A stretch of DNA of 64,000 nt from Chlamydiae bacterium RIFCSPLOWO2_12_FULL_45_20 (GTDB lineage Bacteria > Chlamydiota > Chlamydiia > Chlamydiales > SM23-39). Positions 19,542 to 32,636 of the stretch are shown here, piece after piece. Within the stretch, counting starts at the first letter, position 1. The number at the start of each line of letters is the position of its first letter. Location of the stretch: the NCBI GenBank assembly GCA_001796285.1, contig MGMD01000001.1:10143-74142 (forward strand), read 5' to 3'. The position numbers and the translations under genes are program-made. The notes under the pieces were generated by a model that worked only from the letters and a program-made list of their open reading frames with translations, was not told the origin of the DNA and ran no database searches.

Positions 19542-21047
19542 ATGCAAAATACTTCGAAAAAAGCATTTGCCGTCGTAGGCATCGGACTGGGTGTTGTGGT
19601 GCTAGGAATGATTTGGTCCCTCGTAAATACAGCGCTAGCTTCCATCCAAAAAGACCTGTTCGCCTCTATATTACAATTACAATGGATGATGAATTGTTTC
19701 GGAATTTTTCTATGTGTCCCTCTTTTGATGATGGGTAAATTAGGTGATGCATATGGGCGAAGAAAAATCTTTCTTTGCGGCCTTATTATAGCCCTTCTTG
19801 CCTCTGTCATTGGCGGCTTTGCTACACGCATGGAATTTCTCATCGCCTGTATGGGGCTTTTTGGATTAGCTGGATCCATGATCTTGCCGCTTTCTCAGGC
19901 TCTTCTTGTCCATCAATTTCCTGAAGACCGAAAAGAAAAAGCCGTTGCTCTTTGGTCGATCTTTGCATCCCTATCTCTTGCTTGCGGTCCTATTGTAAGC
20001 GGATTCATTCTTCATTGGCTAGATTGGCATTGGATCTATTGGATCGATATTCCTCTGATCATGATTGCTATCGCCATCGTTTACTATTTCGTCGATCAAG
20101 AAAGTGAATTTCATAAACCTCATTGCAACTGGACAGGCGTGGGAGTGCTAGCCCTCATCGTTGGATCTCTCGTCATGGGCATTATGCAAGGCCCTACATG
20201 GGGCTGGACTTCACTCAGCATCATCTCTCTTTTTGTTCTCTGGATGACGAGTCTGGGTCTTTTCATTGTATTAGAACGCACAACCAACACGCCCCTCTTC
20301 CGTCCCGATCTCTTTTCCAATCGCTGTTTTCTTTTCAGTGCAATCCCCAATGGGTGCACGATCGGATTTCTTTGGGTTGTAATCTTTACCGTCCCTCTCT
20401 ATTTACAACATATCCTTCAATTTTCCCCTCTTCAAACAGGGTTTTTCCTCCTTCTGATCACATTGCCTGTTTTTTTCTTCTCGGTCACTGTTAGCAAGTG
20501 GTACCACAAGTGGGGAGCCAAACGTCTGATGCTTCTAGGCTACACTCTTTTTCTCATTGGATTTTTTCTCCAAGCCTTCGTCCACCCAAACTATTGGTCT
20601 CTTGGCATTGGCTGCCTTGCGATCGGCATCGGCTGGGTCTTGACATGGGGACCTTCCATCTCGAATTCCCTGTCTTCCATTCCCCACCACATTGCTGGTA
20701 TAGCGTCTGGGATGTTCACAACGCTTCAAGAGCTGGGGGCGATTCTCTCTCTTGCCATTGCCGGCGTTTTTTTTCGGACTGTCCAGCAAAATCATCTTCA
20801 GCCGCACCTAGATGAAATCCGTTCTAGTCTCAATGCTGCCAAATTGGGAACCAATTTCGACGCACTCCTCTCTAATCCGGCTTCGGTGGAACAGCTCCTA
20901 GGACCAGACGCCTCGATTCTTCCTTGGCTGAACAACGCTTTCTTAGCTGGCTACGAAGCCACCTTTCAATTTCTTCTGGGCAGTTGTGTGGTGGCAATGC
21001 TTGTAACCAGCTTACTCCCCAAACGCGGCCCAACAACCAATTCTTGA
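19542..21047 (+). CDS. MFS transporter, 14-TM drug:H+ antiporter (EmrB/QacA-like)
   Basis: GKLGDAYGRRKIF (MFS motif A) and many TM helices. Start trimmed to ATG 19542. Confidence 0.8.
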   Translation: MQNTSKKAFAVVGIGLGVVVLGMIWSLVNTALASIQKDLFASILQLQWMMNCFGIFLCVPLLMMGKLGDAYGRRKIFLCGLIIALLASVIGGFATRMEFLIACMGLFGLAGSMILPLSQALLVHQFPEDRKEKAVALWSIFASLSLACGPIVSGFILHWLDWHWIYWIDIPLIMIAIAIVYYFVDQESEFHKPHCNWTGVGVLALIVGSLVMGIMQGPTWGWTSLSIISLFVLWMTSLGLFIVLERTTNTPLFRPDLFSNRCFLFSAIPNGCTIGFLWVVIFTVPLYLQHILQFSPLQTGFFLLLITLPVFFFSVTVSKWYHKWGAKRLMLLGYTLFLIGFFLQAFVHPNYWSLGIGCLAIGIGWVLTWGPSISNSLSSIPHHIAGIASGMFTTLQELGAILSLAIAGVFFRTVQQNHLQPHLDEIRSSLNAAKLGTNFDALLSNPASVEQLLGPDASILPWLNNAFLAGYEATFQFLLGSCVVAMLVTSLLPKRGPTTNS

Positions 21048-22220
21048 ATCATGTTCGGCATAAAGAGGTCTGTTACACATGGTGTCAGCAGGTTGTAAAC
21101 TAGCCAGGAGTTTGTCTTTGCTTAAGGTAACCAGCTTTATTCCAGAATCATTTTCTCCGCAAGAGACAAGGAGAGAGTCTCGTTCATCTTTAAGAACAAA
21201 CCCTGCAGGATAGATCGAACGCACTTTGGGATTTGCCATAGGCTGATGGAGTGTATCGTAAATGCCCTTGAAAAGAATCGGATATGGAGAAATACGAGTC
21301 ATTTTAAAGGGAGGAAAAGCTTCGAATGTGAAGGCCCCCATGACATACCAAATGATCCCCAGATGATCTTCAAAGGAACTATGAAAAAAAGAGAGATATT
21401 CTTTCTCCACCAGCAATGCTGGGGTTCCCCCTCGCAATATGCCCCACCGACTCGACCAGCTTGAAGAAGAAAAGAGCAAGCTGGGAAAGCTTTCTAAAGA
21501 GTCTTTTTGTGGATCGGACAGTGACAAAATTTTCTGCCTACCAATCTCATAGACGAAATGGATCTTTCCCGAGTGAGAAAAAGGCGTCCAGTTTTTTTCT
21601 ACTTTCTGAAATTGATGATGAAGTGGAGTGATATAGTCGAGCTTTTGCTCTTTTAAGTTCAACGCTCCAATCCGCAGTCCGCGCACATCTTTTGAATGGG
21701 AATGGATATCGCTGTAGATAAGGTAGTTCTCTTTTCCATGCTGAAAAAAACGAGGATCTTCTGAAAAAGGGCTGTTTGTTCGAATTTTACAAAAGGTTTT
21801 TTCCAGAGGATTGAGGTCTTGATCCAACTGAACACTGCCAATATTGGAAATAGAGAAGGGAAAGCCATGGCCAAAAAGAGGAAAATCATAGCGGAAGAAA
21901 AGATAGTGCCTTCCTTCAGAAATCCCAATGGAAGCATTATAGGGCGGTGTAAAAAGGGGAAAATGAAAGATTTTCACGTCGAGGACAATCCCTTCTTTTT
22001 CGGCCAAAGGAAGGTTTGAAAGAGAGGGAGGAAGAGAGCGGCTTTTGGTGAAGTTTTCCACGGAAAGATAAGCAGTGTGCAAAAGTCGTTCGTTTTTCCG
22101 CAAAATAGAGAGCTTTTTTTCGCGGGTTTTCCTATTCGCTTTAGTTAAGTTATGCAACTTAATGACTTGATAAATAGCCAAAAAAAATTGAATAGCAAAA
22201 AAAAAGAGAAGCATTTTCAT
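21012..22220 (-). CDS. N-terminally anchored beta-propeller protein, GH130/DUF377-like (tentative), paralog 1
   Basis: 402-aa ORF with anchor MKMLLFFFAIQFFLAIYQVI. SEDPRFF, VEKNWTPF, RGGTPALL, WYVMGAFTF and IYPAGFVL...LLVSCGENDSGIKLV resemble the GH130-type glycoside phosphorylase/transferase layout. Confidence 0.45.
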   Translation of the reverse strand: MKMLLFFFAIQFFLAIYQVIKLHNLTKANRKTREKKLSILRKNERLLHTAYLSVENFTKSRSLPPSLSNLPLAEKEGIVLDVKIFHFPLFTPPYNASIGISEGRHYLFFRYDFPLFGHGFPFSISNIGSVQLDQDLNPLEKTFCKIRTNSPFSEDPRFFQHGKENYLIYSDIHSHSKDVRGLRIGALNLKEQKLDYITPLHHQFQKVEKNWTPFSHSGKIHFVYEIGRQKILSLSDPQKDSLESFPSLLFSSSSWSSRWGILRGGTPALLVEKEYLSFFHSSFEDHLGIIWYVMGAFTFEAFPPFKMTRISPYPILFKGIYDTLHQPMANPKVRSIYPAGFVLKDERDSLLVSCGENDSGIKLVTLSKDKLLASLQPADTMCNRPLYAEHDSRIGCWAAFGE

Positions 22221-22230
22221 AAAGCCACTA

Positions 22231-31858: not shown

Positions 31859-32565
31859 GGGAAAATATCCTTTATTTTTTGATAAATGTCATCTGGACCT
31901 AACTCACATATTTTCCTATACCCTAAAGGTTCGAGAAATGCTTGGAAGGGATCATGATAATTATTTTCGACTTCAATCACATCGATGTCAATACGAGAAA
32001 AATCAATGGACTGAAGAATCCCCAATTCCCCGCCTTCAGTATCGATACTGAGATAGTCAATATGGTGCATATGATGATCGATCAAAAGATCCGTTAGATC
32101 ATAACATTTCACGTTGATTATTTCTGATTGTCCTCCATTGAGGTCGATTTCCCACTGGATTCTTTTCAAGTGTTGCGGATCATAATTTTCCATGATCCCG
32201 CTTAACATTTCAGCCCACCCAGAAATTTTTAAGAAGGGAACACTGTCCCGGTTATCAAAAATACAACCCTGGACGCATACACAGCTTCTGTTCTTTTTTA
32301 ATCGGTTGTAAACTTCGGGAATAGGTTCAACGCAAATCCCCGTCCATCCCATGCTTTTTTCAAAAAAATAGGTGTTGCTCAATGTGATTCCATCATGTGC
32401 TCCAATATCTACAAAAACACCATTTTGTTTGTTTTTGAAAAATTTCTCATAAACATATTGGTCTTGTTGATATTGACTATAGAACTTATGTTCTTCTGCA
32501 AAGACACACAACGTATTAAACTGTGAAATAATGATCACAAATAGTAAGCCACCTAGTCGATGCAT
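31855..32565 (-). CDS. FkbM-family methyltransferase with signal-like N-terminus
   Basis: MHRLGGLLFVIIISQFNTLCVFA, then GVFVDIGAHDGITLSNTYFFEKSMGWTGICVEP and LSIDTEGGEL. The track start is 32589. Confidence 0.6.
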   Translation of the reverse strand: MHRLGGLLFVIIISQFNTLCVFAEEHKFYSQYQQDQYVYEKFFKNKQNGVFVDIGAHDGITLSNTYFFEKSMGWTGICVEPIPEVYNRLKKNRSCVCVQGCIFDNRDSVPFLKISGWAEMLSGIMENYDPQHLKRIQWEIDLNGGQSEIINVKCYDLTDLLIDHHMHHIDYLSIDTEGGELGILQSIDFSRIDIDVIEVENNYHDPFQAFLEPLGYRKICELGPDDIYQKIKDIFP

Positions 32566-32636
32566 TTTGTCTCCGTTTTGCTTTTCCAAAATACCCTATC
32601 GCCAGTTTGTTTTCAAAACTTTACTGCGAGCTTTTA

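Follow-up and report, generated by a model that had tools for sequence, protein, structure and literature searches.

The 64,000-nt stretch of chlamydial DNA analyzed here (the window) contains a block of 12 genes, at positions 21012-32589, that is probably a hypervariable surface-glycan tailoring island with enzymes that are exported via Sec and are not cytoplasmic. If true, the glycan made by this uncultured chlamydia-like bacterium is methylated and rich in fucose, is assembled outside the cytoplasm and may draw on activated sugars of the host. All 12 open reading frames (O1 to O12) are present at the coordinates given below and are arranged in tightly coupled units, namely the minus-strand run from O12 to O5, the group O2 to O4, and O1 alone. 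Ten of the products would be signal-bearing, comprising GT10/GT11 fucosyltransferases, GT25/GT92 hexosyltransferases, five SAM-dependent sugar O-methyltransferases and a UDP-hexose 4-epimerase (GalE), and two GH130/GT108-fold mannosyl enzymes would be tethered by a true transmembrane (TM) helix. A first-pass annotation, made from the sequence alone, had proposed a fucosylated, O-methylated product and an undescribed system; gene content predicts such a product, and our literature search found no published description of an exported glycan-tailoring island of this kind.

The four glycosyltransferase families named by the first-pass annotation agree with HMM searches. O10 (29997..30935, minus strand) matches the GT10 fucosyltransferases (PF00852, 3e-16), O6 (26450..27328, minus strand) the GT11 or alpha-1,2-fucosyltransferase family (PF01531, 2e-20), O4 (24455..25390, plus strand) GT25 (PF01755, 2e-10), and O5 (25530..26435, minus strand) GT92 (PF01697, 9e-33), with a DVDEF motif in its sequence. 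GT90 had been listed with these four, but the GT90 genes of the window, at 289-1518 and 47174-48316, are not part of the block. All four island transferases bear a signal-like N-terminus. That of O4 reads MNILIVVHVFLAVFSTWSLHA, followed by GL, and the deposited 311-aa product has an identical start; that of O6 reads MKNRTLIFLSSVFMSFGLFG, followed by EN, with its ATG on an ATGA overlap. The signal rule described below is passed by 30/36 O4 homologs and 10/10 O5 homologs in related loci, and by 9/12 O6 homologs. Signal-like N-termini are found in 95/119 O10 homologs, in which residue identity is low at positions 4-15 while hydrophobicity is kept high, and a conserved mature N-terminus then follows.

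Three FkbM methyltransferases and two further class I methyltransferases had been proposed, and all five, likewise signal-bearing, were recovered. O12 (31855..32565, minus strand), which opens the O12-to-O5 run, matches FkbM (PF05050, 4e-20) and begins with MHRLGGLLFVIIISQFNTLCVFA, followed by EE, a start identical to that of the deposited 236-aa product. O11 (30932..31858, minus strand) matches PF05050 (2e-8) and TIGR01444, and its N-terminus, MKIQTVTLFCISLIPSLG followed by HS, starts on an ATGA overlap. The third, O9 (29192..29896, minus strand), had no match among Pfam HMMs and is FkbM-related by BLASTP to O12 (2e-12), over a region that includes the SAM motif; it begins with MTKIAAFLLCVILGLSQRLEA, followed by LN, and its homolog in a related locus (L005) is also signal-bearing. 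O3 (23758..24444, plus strand), of the Methyltransf_24 or CmcI-TylF type, matches PF13578 (1.5e-16) and PF04989 (5e-7); its N-terminus is MKKIFFLYGLLAAISPLFS, followed by SN, and its ATG shares an ATGA overlap with the stop codon of O2. O7 (27325..28152, minus strand), a putative sugar O-methyltransferase of the NanM type, had no match among Pfam HMMs and scored 52.3 bits against TIGR04371 (cut-off 44); it starts on an ATGA overlap, and 6/6 of its homologs pass the signal rule.

The epimerase, signal-bearing O8 (28149..29195, minus strand), had been called GalE-like and is a true UDP-glucose 4-epimerase equivalog (TIGR01179, 362.5 bits; cut-off 262.3), matched from residue 28 onward. Its approximately 45 closest homologs all have a hydrophobic leader of 20-30 aa before VLVTGGAGYIGS, the Rossmann strand; GalE proteins farther from O8 are leaderless and start directly at this strand. 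One such leaderless GalE is encoded in the same window (17818-18804, minus strand; TIGR01179, 379 bits, match from residue 2) and shares 43% identity with O8. The presence of both forms in one window is hard to explain by one shared compartment. The deposited O8 start cuts into the signal and leaves out most of the leader, and the start at 29195 is backed by an ATGA overlap. A search of the exported GalE clade for clade-specific conserved cysteines, which would be a sign of an oxidizing compartment, found none.

O1 (21012..22220, minus strand) and O2 (22568..23761, plus strand), noted earlier as beta-propeller paralogs, share 37% identity (E = 4e-70). O1 has weak matches to PF04041 and PF12141. 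The AlphaFold model of O2 (pLDDT 92) consists of a helix at residues 3-57 and an all-beta domain after it, and Foldseek places it closest to beta-1,2-mannoside phosphorylases and Leishmania MPT mannosyltransferases (best E = 7e-12). On this modeling, the fold of both proteins is predicted to be the GH130/GT108 five-bladed propeller, and O1 is a putative beta-mannoside phosphorylase or mannosyltransferase. Both have long basic heads and a true TM helix of ~21 residues, with no short signal; the O1 N-terminus is MKMLLFFFAIQFFLAIYQVIKL, followed by a K/R-rich stretch, and is negative by the cleavable-signal rule. A TM helix of ~21 residues is found in 101/120 O2 homologs, and the more basic flank of the helix is the C-terminal one in 69 versus 12. 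O1 and O2 appear from their sequences to be the only membrane anchors in the island, and the other ten proteins have short N-termini that look like cleavable bacterial Sec signals.

The first-pass annotation had described a short polar head and a hydrophobic stretch at the N-terminus of all 12 proteins and had likened them to the anchors of Golgi enzymes. A hydrophobic segment is indeed present in 12/12, but those of O1 and O2 follow long basic heads, and the Golgi-type reading did not hold for the remainder. Their n-region has a median of 3-4 residues and a net charge of about +2.5, the median length of their uncharged run is 15 residues (IQR 13-16), residues at -1 and -3 are usually small, and in GT10 the 15 residues after the run are acidic (net charge -2.4), which is characteristic of the cleavable Sec type. 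Given K/R before the run and the acidic stretch after it in GT10, the positive-inside rule predicts translocation of the C-terminal side. Signals were called with a purpose-made rule set that also flags the re-entrant helix of a neighboring phosphoglycosyl transferase (PGT); in its strict form, it was passed by 11/12 island ORFs versus 14/48 others in the window (Fisher p = 1e-4), and across 84 DNA sources by 189/236 (80%) island-family ORFs versus 237/989 (24%) others (odds ratio 12.8, p = 8e-58). In each family tested, export-type N-termini are conserved in over 100 homologs (for GalE, the ~45 closest). The segments also survived a check of start codons: six signal-bearing starts lie on ATGA stop/start overlaps, and deposited gene calls have identical starts in 9/10 cases looked up, O8 being the exception. 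Because leaders recur in GT10 and GalE homologs and in the 84 sources at these frequencies, they are not start-codon artefacts.

The block is not peculiar to one genome. It is one case of a widespread and variable island type, and comparable islands are carried by Chlamydiota, Dependentiae and some MAGs labeled Verrucomicrobiae. Close relatives differ strongly in island content, although the order GalE-O7-GT11-GT92 is kept in related locus L164. Signal-bearing neighbors in related loci include GT2, GT6, NodZ/GT23, CAP59-like, DUF268 and sulfotransferase proteins, a 4,6-dehydratase-like SDR, and a GDP-fucose synthase of the Fcl type (472 bits, matched from residue 27 onward); the DegT, GFO and aminotransferase genes beside them lack a leader. 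TLC/NTT transporters are present in GT10 neighborhoods, which fits energy parasitism.

Three genes directly flanking the block had been overlooked: the leaderless GalE, a small WbaP-type PGT (18804-19409, minus strand; PF02397, 1e-64; WbaP/RfbP-type models, 1e-80), and an MFS transporter lying between this PGT and the island (19410..21047, plus strand; PF07690, 2e-47). The first two may represent a cytoplasmic priming step, and they are a reason to consider ordinary assembly on the cytoplasmic face, in which the island enzymes would extend an undecaprenyl-pyrophosphate-linked sugar begun by the PGT, with flippase and ligase encoded elsewhere in the genome. The strongly basic stretch C-terminal to the O1/O2 helices, which could place the catalytic domains on the cytoplasmic side, the erroneous flagging of the PGT helix by our signal rule, and the proline in several leaders would all suit such a pathway. 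We nevertheless consider it quite unlikely. The PGT linkage is not conserved (a homolog in 0/83 other sources), a 15-residue median run is too short for a membrane span or a two-limbed re-entrant helix, and the charge pattern in GT10, the small residues at -1 and -3, and the side-by-side leader-bearing and leaderless GalE all argue for export. The absence of an exporter set, which had been noted before, was confirmed: Wzx, Wzy, WaaL and ABC2 were not found among the window ORFs scanned, and Wzx/Wzy/WaaL were not among the 25 commonest polytopic-protein families near GT10 in 78 related loci.

A different destination is conceivable for exported enzymes, which could leave the cell by type II secretion or in vesicles after Sec export and remodel, in place of the bacterial surface, host glycoproteins and glycolipids exposed to the lumen of the vacuole or to other host membranes. 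This explanation shares the export evidence with the one we favor; moreover, GT6, GT10, GT11, GT23, GT92 and sulfotransferases are families acting on eukaryotic N-/O-glycans, the island-bearing lineages include known intracellular symbionts of protists, and chlamydial enzymes are known to work in the inclusion lumen (PMC4829429). It seems unlikely, however, as no secretion-system genes were linked to the islands apart from a pseudopilin-like gene in one locus, the strong content variation among close relatives resembles that of surface-antigen loci, and GT25 is typical of bacterial lipooligosaccharide. The leaders could also be vestigial Golgi anchors acquired from a eukaryote or giant virus, or products of wrong start codons. 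The prevalence of these families in eukaryotes, the GC content of the island (41.0% versus 45.3% in the flanks, p = 4e-5) and the deposited GalE start that drops most of the leader are compatible with such an origin, and a eukaryote-like source had been suggested. This is very improbable and largely refuted by the conserved leaders, the six starts fixed by ATGA overlaps and the bacterial relatives. Leaders are kept in hundreds of diverged bacterial homologs, with their physico-chemistry conserved and their sequence not; named close relatives are bacterial without exception; and the GT10 profile lies as far from human FUT9 (2e-19) as from H. pylori FucT structures (8e-19). Relatives in giant viruses and phages are distant (identity at most ~34% over long matches), the phage-like GT10 relatives checked are without a leader, and neither repeats nor a tRNA gene were found at the island flanks.

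Under Sec export to a surface-glycan tailoring pathway, the site of enzyme action would be the periplasm, the cell surface or the lumen of the host vacuole, and GDP-fucose, UDP-hexose, SAM and NAD+ would therefore have to be present there. The host cell would be the simplest donor source, because small host metabolites must in any case pass the outer membrane before energy parasites can take them up through their inner-membrane importers. The product may be a fucosylated, galactosylated, O-methylated oligosaccharide, possibly Lewis- or blood-group-like, and the acceptor may be the bacterium’s own lipooligosaccharide or envelope proteins. Against this view, an exported epimerase that depends on NAD would have to be loaded with its cofactor outside the cytoplasm, the exported GalE clade lacks the clade-specific conserved cysteines mentioned above, an initiating transferase of the cytoplasm is encoded beside the island, and a pathway that is partly cytoplasmic would suit the basic flank C-terminal to the O1/O2 helices.

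Known systems share parts of this logic. Like Wzx/Wzy- or ABC-dependent O-antigen and capsule loci, the island is a clustered, low-GC and highly variable set of glycosyltransferases and sugar-modifying enzymes with an adjacent initiating PGT; it differs from them in the lack of Wzx, Wzy, WaaL and ABC2 among the window ORFs scanned, or as recurrent genes in the 78 related loci, and enzymes of such loci are normally without a leader. H. pylori Lewis-antigen LPS is made by members of the same CAZy families (GT10 FutA/FutB, GT11 FutC) and carries a fucosylated host-like epitope, the likely product class of the island. The H. pylori fucosyltransferases lack a leader and work at the cytoplasmic face, ahead of O-antigen flipping and ligation, whereas the island enzymes have N-terminal Sec-type signals and no linked flippase or ligase. 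The eukaryotic Golgi combines type II membrane glycosyltransferases, luminal methyl- and sulfotransferases, and nucleotide-sugar transporters. The repertoire is similar (GT6, 10, 11, 23, 25, 92, sulfotransferases, sugar O-methyltransferases), as would be the logic of non-cytoplasmic catalytic domains with donors supplied across a membrane. However, Golgi enzymes have uncleaved signal anchors with stem regions, in contrast to the short, cleavable-type bacterial signals of the island, the genes of which are operonic, with a bacterial phylogenetic neighborhood and no transporter identified.

The only experimentally supported precedent that we found for the proposed logic is in C. trachomatis, which makes glycogen in the inclusion lumen with GlgA, GlgB and other enzymes secreted into the inclusion and host UDP-glucose imported by SLC35D2 (PMC4829429). 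There too, a nucleotide sugar made by the host serves a chlamydial Leloir-type transferase outside the cytoplasm; in contrast to the Sec signal peptides of the island, the glycogen enzymes have type III secretion signals, and the pathway yields a storage polymer without methyltransferases or nucleotide-sugar interconverting enzymes. N. gonorrhoeae Lst, a single bacterial Leloir transferase as opposed to a multi-enzyme exported set, also uses a host-derived donor, decorating lipooligosaccharide from host CMP-Neu5Ac (PMC4668040). The reported surface location of Lst has been disputed, and a recent study assigns the enzyme to the cytoplasm (PMC8092323); the relocation of this textbook surface Leloir transferase counts against our preferred explanation. 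In Parachlamydia acanthamoebae, PaGT6 transfers GalNAc to the H antigen in vitro (PMC3516806), so that a chlamydia-like organism has an active blood-group-type transferase needing a fucosylated acceptor. The study is silent on localization, signals and gene context (PMC3516806). GT6 is absent from the window, and a signal-bearing GT6 is encoded in a Dependentiae island (L039).

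The Leloir transferases, SAM-dependent methyltransferases and nucleotide-sugar epimerase encoded at 21012-32589 form a coherent set whose N-termini are conserved and resemble, in their properties, the cleavable Sec signals of bacteria. This island holds 12 ORFs (O1-O12, in coordinate order): O1 lies on the minus strand, divergent from the plus-strand genes O2-O3-O4, which converge on an eight-gene minus-strand run from O12 to O5. At six junctions, stop and start codons overlap by 4 nt (ATGA), indicating translational coupling and fixing those start codons. Among the ten deposited products looked up, eight are hypothetical, one is named "methyltransferase fkbm family," and GalE is named as such with a shorter start. 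Between the divergent O1 and O2, there is a 37-nt inverted repeat (22230-22266 and 22355-22391; arms 84% complementary and separated by 88 nt) that may act in regulation or fold into an RNA hairpin; promoter and terminator scans performed near chance level and were therefore left out of the argument.

The motif-based family calls of the first-pass annotation were upheld by HMM searches (Pfam, NCBIfam), with O10 (GT10), O6 (GT11), O4 (GT25), O5 (GT92), O3 (Methyltransf_24), O8 (epimerase), and O11 and O12 (FkbM) all above Pfam gathering thresholds. O10 matches the C-terminal catalytic domain PF00852 at 59.9 bits (cut-off 23.9), and its FCICFENT...GYITEK...PVYWG, the FxxxFEN...YxTEK motif region, is invariant across a 22-sequence GT10 alignment; the GT10 profile matches the PDB structures of human FUT9 and H. 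pylori FucT, equidistant from both. By family criteria O10 is a GT10 fucosyltransferase, with alpha-1,3/4 transfer from GDP-fucose predicted. FkbM-GT10 fusion proteins exist (homolog P0135), tying methylation to fucosylation. O6 aligns to model positions 111-273 of PF01531 (73.7 bits, cut-off 23.9) and reads HIRYYF at the usual position of the HxRRGD donor motif, so donor binding may differ. O4 matches PF01755 (41.2 bits, cut-off 24) and contains an LEDD motif, while O5 matches PF01697 (114.4 bits, cut-off 23) and contains DVDEF, a DxD motif. Against PF05050 (cut-off 22.7), O11 scores 34.9 bits and O12 73.1 bits, and O11 also matches TIGR01444; O9 has no Pfam match yet is related to O12 at 2e-12 across the SAM-motif region, and is thus regarded as a divergent FkbM relative rather than a demonstrated member. 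O7, also without a Pfam match, scores above the NCBIfam threshold as a NanM-type putative sugar O-methyltransferase. O8 scores 362.5 bits against the TIGR01179 equivalog (cut-off 262.3) and carries GGAGYIGS (GxxGxxG) and YGVSK (YxxxK); judged by profile it is a true GalE, for which UDP-Glc/Gal, UDP-GlcNAc/GalNAc or UDP-Xyl/Ara are candidate substrates.

O1 and O2 are paralogs that score 18.2 and 24.1 bits against PF04041 (GH130), below its gathering score of 26. Sequence-only PDB searches with O2 and O7 returned nothing significant. An AlphaFold model of O2 built from 51 sequences (pLDDT 92) begins with a long helix that leads into an all-beta domain, and its best Foldseek matches (E=7e-12, target-normalised TM-score 0.67-0.70) are five-bladed propellers, namely beta-1,2-mannoside phosphorylases and Leishmania GT108 mannosyltransferase/phosphorylases. 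As the fold agrees and sequence-level membership does not, both are filed as GH130/GT108-fold proteins and not as members, and are treated, on the strength of the model, as putative mannosyl enzymes that might act in synthesis or phosphorolysis.

The first-pass annotation had described an N-terminal hydrophobic segment on every enzyme, and one is present in all 12 products. A strict, custom signal rule (positive n-region, uncharged hydrophobic run, small residues at -3/-1, no later TM segment), which also flagged the re-entrant helix of a phosphoglycosyl transferase (PGT), passed 11 of the 12 island ORFs vs. 14 of the 48 other ORFs in the window (p=1e-4). Ten products have short signal-like N-termini such as MKRSLLLFIWSLHSVFS, MKKLLVVSILLCHLLHS and MHRLGGLLFVIIISQFNTLCVFA, with predicted cleavage before YE, NP and EE, respectively. 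By this custom rule, features predictive of Sec (SPase I) signals, including an h-region of ~7-15 residues, are recognizable in 10 of the 12 enzymes and in 80% of homologs. Among the best GT10 homologs, 95 of 119 have a signal-like N-terminus, the exceptions being mostly fragments or long mis-starts. Positions 4-15 of the 22-sequence GT10 alignment have a mean top-residue frequency of 0.37 and a mean Kyte-Doolittle value of 2.2, i.e., they are uniformly hydrophobic, with K/R before them and a conserved acidic mature N-terminus, (E)VDIVSSF, after them. Family-wide, the median n-region is 3 residues (charge ~+2.5) and the median uncharged run 15 residues; over the 15 residues that come after, the net charge is -2.4. 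Phage-like GT10 relatives (30-34% identical) have no leader, which makes the leader a lineage-specific feature and not a property of the family.

The GalE proteins present the same picture. All of the ~45 closest homologs of O8 (at least ~50% identity) bear a 20-30-residue hydrophobic leader that runs straight up to the first Rossmann strand (VLVTGGAGYIGS); ordinary GalE proteins at greater distance mostly start M-x(2-10)-LVTGGAGYIGS, and a few of them have a leader (P0189, P0211, P0214, P0247). A second GalE, leaderless and 43% identical to O8, lies 9 kb away, so that a single window encodes both a cytoplasmic-type and an export-type copy. A search for clade-specific conserved cysteines in the leader-bearing GalE clade, as a sign of an oxidizing compartment, found none and was uninformative. 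The public annotation of GalE (28149-29195, minus strand) gives 335 aa starting MVVSGSLY, which truncates the leader; a start at 29195 (348-aa form) is favored by the homologs as well as by the ATGA overlap, and similar truncations may hide leaders in other MAG entries. The first-pass annotation had named loss of the N-terminal segments on mapping of the true start codons as a refuting outcome; homolog N-termini, ATGA overlaps and deposited gene calls uphold the starts, and a start-codon artefact was rejected as the source of the leaders.

The leader-before-Rossmann-strand layout of GalE is also seen in a thioredoxin reductase-thioredoxin fusion at 12235-13623 on the minus strand (Pyr_redox_2 + Thioredoxin), whose N-terminus, MFHFFQSFLLAIFLPILSLG with predicted cleavage before SVQ, directly precedes the FAD-binding GGGVGS strand. 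A hydrophobic N-terminal segment is found in 92 of its 102 scorable homologs (best 150 representatives from a library of 1.8 billion proteins). This signal-bearing fusion is a hint that export extends to other cofactor-dependent chemistry, and an exported FAD-/NADPH-dependent disulfide reductase could bear on the reduction of the disulfide-linked chlamydial envelope. The fusion gene is flanked by two plus-strand genes (10378-12249 and 13702-15519) for polytopic sulfatase-fold proteins (PF00884) of the LtaS/EptA kind, which are candidate periplasmic enzymes for phospho-modification of lipid A, LOS or glycan.

Comparable islands exist in other genomes. When a genome collection was scanned with the GT10 alignment, the best 80 of 585 confirmed relatives, taken as loci, came from Parachlamydiales, Rhabdochlamydiaceae, other Chlamydiota, Dependentiae/TM6/Babeliales and several MAGs labelled Verrucomicrobiae, and two of the source MAGs were labelled proteobacteria. 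The ORFs of 84 sources were searched with the island proteins and then scored by the strict rule, which passed 74/86 GT10, 30/36 GT25, 24/31 FkbM, 10/10 GT92, 9/12 GT11, 6/9 NodZ/GT23 and 6/6 O7-family proteins; over all island families, 189/236 were signal-positive vs. 237/989 other ORFs (odds ratio 12.8, p=8e-58). The glycosyltransferases and methyltransferases around GT10 all have leaders in two genomes that are complete or nearly so, and the adjoining DegT, GFO, aminotransferase and NAD-binding enzymes there lack them. Further signal-bearing neighbors in the related loci include FkbM, GT2, Methyltransf_24, three sulfotransferase families and CAP59-like transferases, together with leader-bearing nucleotide-sugar enzymes, namely an Fcl-type GDP-fucose synthase (472 bits, match from residue 27) and a dTDP-glucose-4,6-dehydratase-like SDR. 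The largest such island observed belongs to a different phylum: in a Dependentiae MAG (locus L039; JBMOLF010000001.1, 1370-20008), ~16 consecutive signal-bearing ORFs encode a GT2-GT10 fusion, three GT2, a GT6 (2.5e-49), NodZ, FkbM, a CAP59/Anp1-like protein, an O7 relative and several family-less products. Synteny, proposed as a check in the first-pass annotation, is modular: GalE-O7-GT11-GT92 recurs in one related locus (L164) with GT25 and Methyltransf_24 nearby, and FkbM-FkbM-GT10 recurs in another (L004), while content otherwise differs even between close relatives, as it does in surface-antigen loci.

How these N-termini act can be weighed against several alternatives. The Golgi-type membrane anchor originally suggested does not suit most of the island, as the median uncharged run is short compared with the ~17-25 residues of uncleaved TM segments and abuts the catalytic domain in GT10 and GalE, leaving no stem. 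A helix of ~21 residues occurs only in O1 and O2; in their family it is preceded by a basic head of 15-40 residues and followed by a C-terminal flank that is more basic still. In these two the segment is a true membrane anchor, though its orientation is uncertain and the catalytic domains may lie on the cytoplasmic side. The N-termini also differ from type III signals of the glycogen-pathway type, which have no hydrophobic core, in having classic hydrophobic cores. Monotopic tethering of the enzymes at the cytoplasmic face is possible, since the signal rule also picks out the re-entrant helix of the PGT, but it is disfavored by the shortness of the uncharged runs, by their asymmetric charge and by the presence of leaderless paralogs alongside.

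An ordinary O-antigen locus would need export genes. As first noted from the sequence, no such genes are recognizable: none of the ~45 window ORFs scanned belongs to the Wzx, Wzy, WaaL or ABC2 families. Unmentioned at that stage were genes adjoining the island at 17818-21047, which encode the leaderless GalE, a small WbaP-type PGT (PF02397, 1e-64, 18804-19409) and a 14-TM-type MFS transporter. Compared with a Wzx/Wzy or ABC locus, an initiating transferase is thus present, and flippase, polymerase and ligase or ABC2 were not found among the window ORFs scanned. The PGT could prime a lipid-linked acceptor; PGT homologs were absent from the other 83 sources, and its linkage to the island is not conserved. 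Across 78 loci, 76 polytopic membrane ORFs lie within 8 kb of GT10. UbiA, MFS, sugar transporters, TLC nucleotide transporters, YidC and EamA are the families seen most often, and the 25 commonest include no O-antigen flippase, polymerase or ligase. The presence of TLC transporters agrees with life as energy parasites in these lineages. A UbiA-family prenyltransferase (~285 aa) lies ~3 kb upstream of GT10 in 11 of the 78 loci (L042, L048, L051, L072, L078, L080-L082 and others), which may be simple clade synteny, or the protein could be an enzyme related to polyprenyl-phosphate sugars. A look for type II secretion genes linked to the islands turned up a single pseudopilin-like ORF, in L006.

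Leloir glycosyltransferases and nucleotide-sugar enzymes of bacteria are conventionally placed in the cytoplasm, with lipid carriers taking the glycans to the surface. If the enzymes described here are exported, their donors and cofactors have to be available on the far side of the inner membrane. Inner-membrane carriers bring ATP, nucleotides, NAD+ and SAM into chlamydiae, which implies that passage of these host metabolites across the outer membrane already takes place. In C. trachomatis, host UDP-glucose reaches the inclusion lumen via SLC35D2 and is used there by secreted GlgA (PMC4829429). We therefore propose that the island would carry out extracytoplasmic tailoring on host-derived donors, a variant of the known chlamydial sugar enzymes that act outside the cell on host donors; we infer the compartment, the origin of the donors and the acceptor. 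The product would be a fucosylated, galactosylated, possibly mannosylated and heavily O-methylated oligosaccharide on the bacterial envelope. Blood-group-type epitopes are within reach of chlamydia-like organisms, as PaGT6 of Parachlamydia forms an A-type structure on H antigen in vitro (PMC3516806). A host-directed role, in which the enzymes would remodel glycans facing the vacuole lumen, is a live alternative to a product on the bacterial envelope. Precedent for exported Leloir transferases is thin, since the best-known supposed surface enzyme, gonococcal Lst, is now placed in the cytoplasm (PMC8092323); with its surface location contested, Lst was dropped as the closest precedent.

More broadly, it is conceivable, if somewhat less than probable, that Chlamydiota, Dependentiae and some MAGs labelled Verrucomicrobiae, as intracellular bacteria of protists, run a Golgi-like extracytoplasmic glycan assembly, in which Sec-exported soluble Leloir glycosyltransferases, SAM methyltransferases, PAPS sulfotransferases and nucleotide-sugar enzymes (GalE, GDP-fucose synthase, 4,6-dehydratase-like) work in the periplasm or vacuole lumen on host-siphoned donors and cofactors, as a distinct mode of bacterial glycan synthesis. 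Such an assembly would bypass both bacterial nucleotide-sugar synthesis and the lipid-carrier/flippase/ligase route, and would add a third way in which bacteria make glycoconjugates, as well as metabolic parasitism of a new kind. Export of these enzyme sets would require a supply of nucleotide sugars, SAM and NAD(P) in the periplasm or vacuole lumen, and would imply direct tapping of host donor pools. Environmental chlamydiae might then display fucosylated, methylated blood-group/Lewis-like epitopes that shape lectin recognition by amoebae and animals, and a testable route would open into old questions on chlamydial envelope proteins, for which eukaryote-like glycans have been reported. The novelty lies not in the gene families, which are known, but in the export-type architecture that runs consistently through a whole pathway, including its nucleotide-sugar enzymes, and that extends over intracellular lineages. 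Among the full-text articles searched, largely from outside the subscription journals, we found no published account of signal-bearing glycosyltransferase/methyltransferase islands in Chlamydiae or Dependentiae. The analysis also flags a large set of MAG "hypothetical proteins" as a coherent system, and offers glycoengineering a supply of fucosyltransferases and sugar methyltransferases predicted to be naturally secretion-competent.

With regard to origin, the GC comparison proposed in the first-pass annotation bore out a difference, the island standing at 41.0% vs. 45.3% in the flanks (p=4e-5) and O10-O12 at 37-38%. Recent acquisition from eukaryotes or giant viruses is not supported: the best 80 loci of the genome scan are all bacterial, GT10 relatives on viral contigs are at most ~34% identical over long matches, the GT10 profile is no nearer to the human than to the Helicobacter structure, and the phage-like relatives are leaderless. 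Neither repeats nor a tRNA gene were found flanking the island, which argues against insertion by a mobile element and leaves the lower GC as the sole hint of transfer. Low GC and the patchy cross-phylum distribution fit exchange among bacteria that share protist hosts. Elsewhere in the window, a GC dip to ~39% at 58000-61200, beside the gene for a RhuM-family virulence protein (60122-61132; PF13310 3e-112), points to a further acquired segment.

Just downstream of the island, plus-strand genes at 32754-35573 include a TPR class-II-chaperone-like gene (33575-33979) among three coiled-coil/hydrophobic ORFs without Pfam match, and look like a type III secretion translocator operon; they are followed by MlaEFD at 35610-38412. 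The glycan theme is shared outside the island by two GT90 paralogs with N-terminal hydrophobic anchors, which lie on the minus strand at 289-1518 and 47174-48316 (PF05686, 1e-42 and 8e-35), the latter adjoining genes for a type I phosphomannose isomerase (48320-49264) and a BrkB-family membrane protein. The minus-strand gene at 6093-8081 encodes a 662-aa UGP3-type UDP-sugar pyrophosphorylase (PF25441 3.5e-32; PF01704; no NCBIfam model) with C-terminal hexapeptide repeats.
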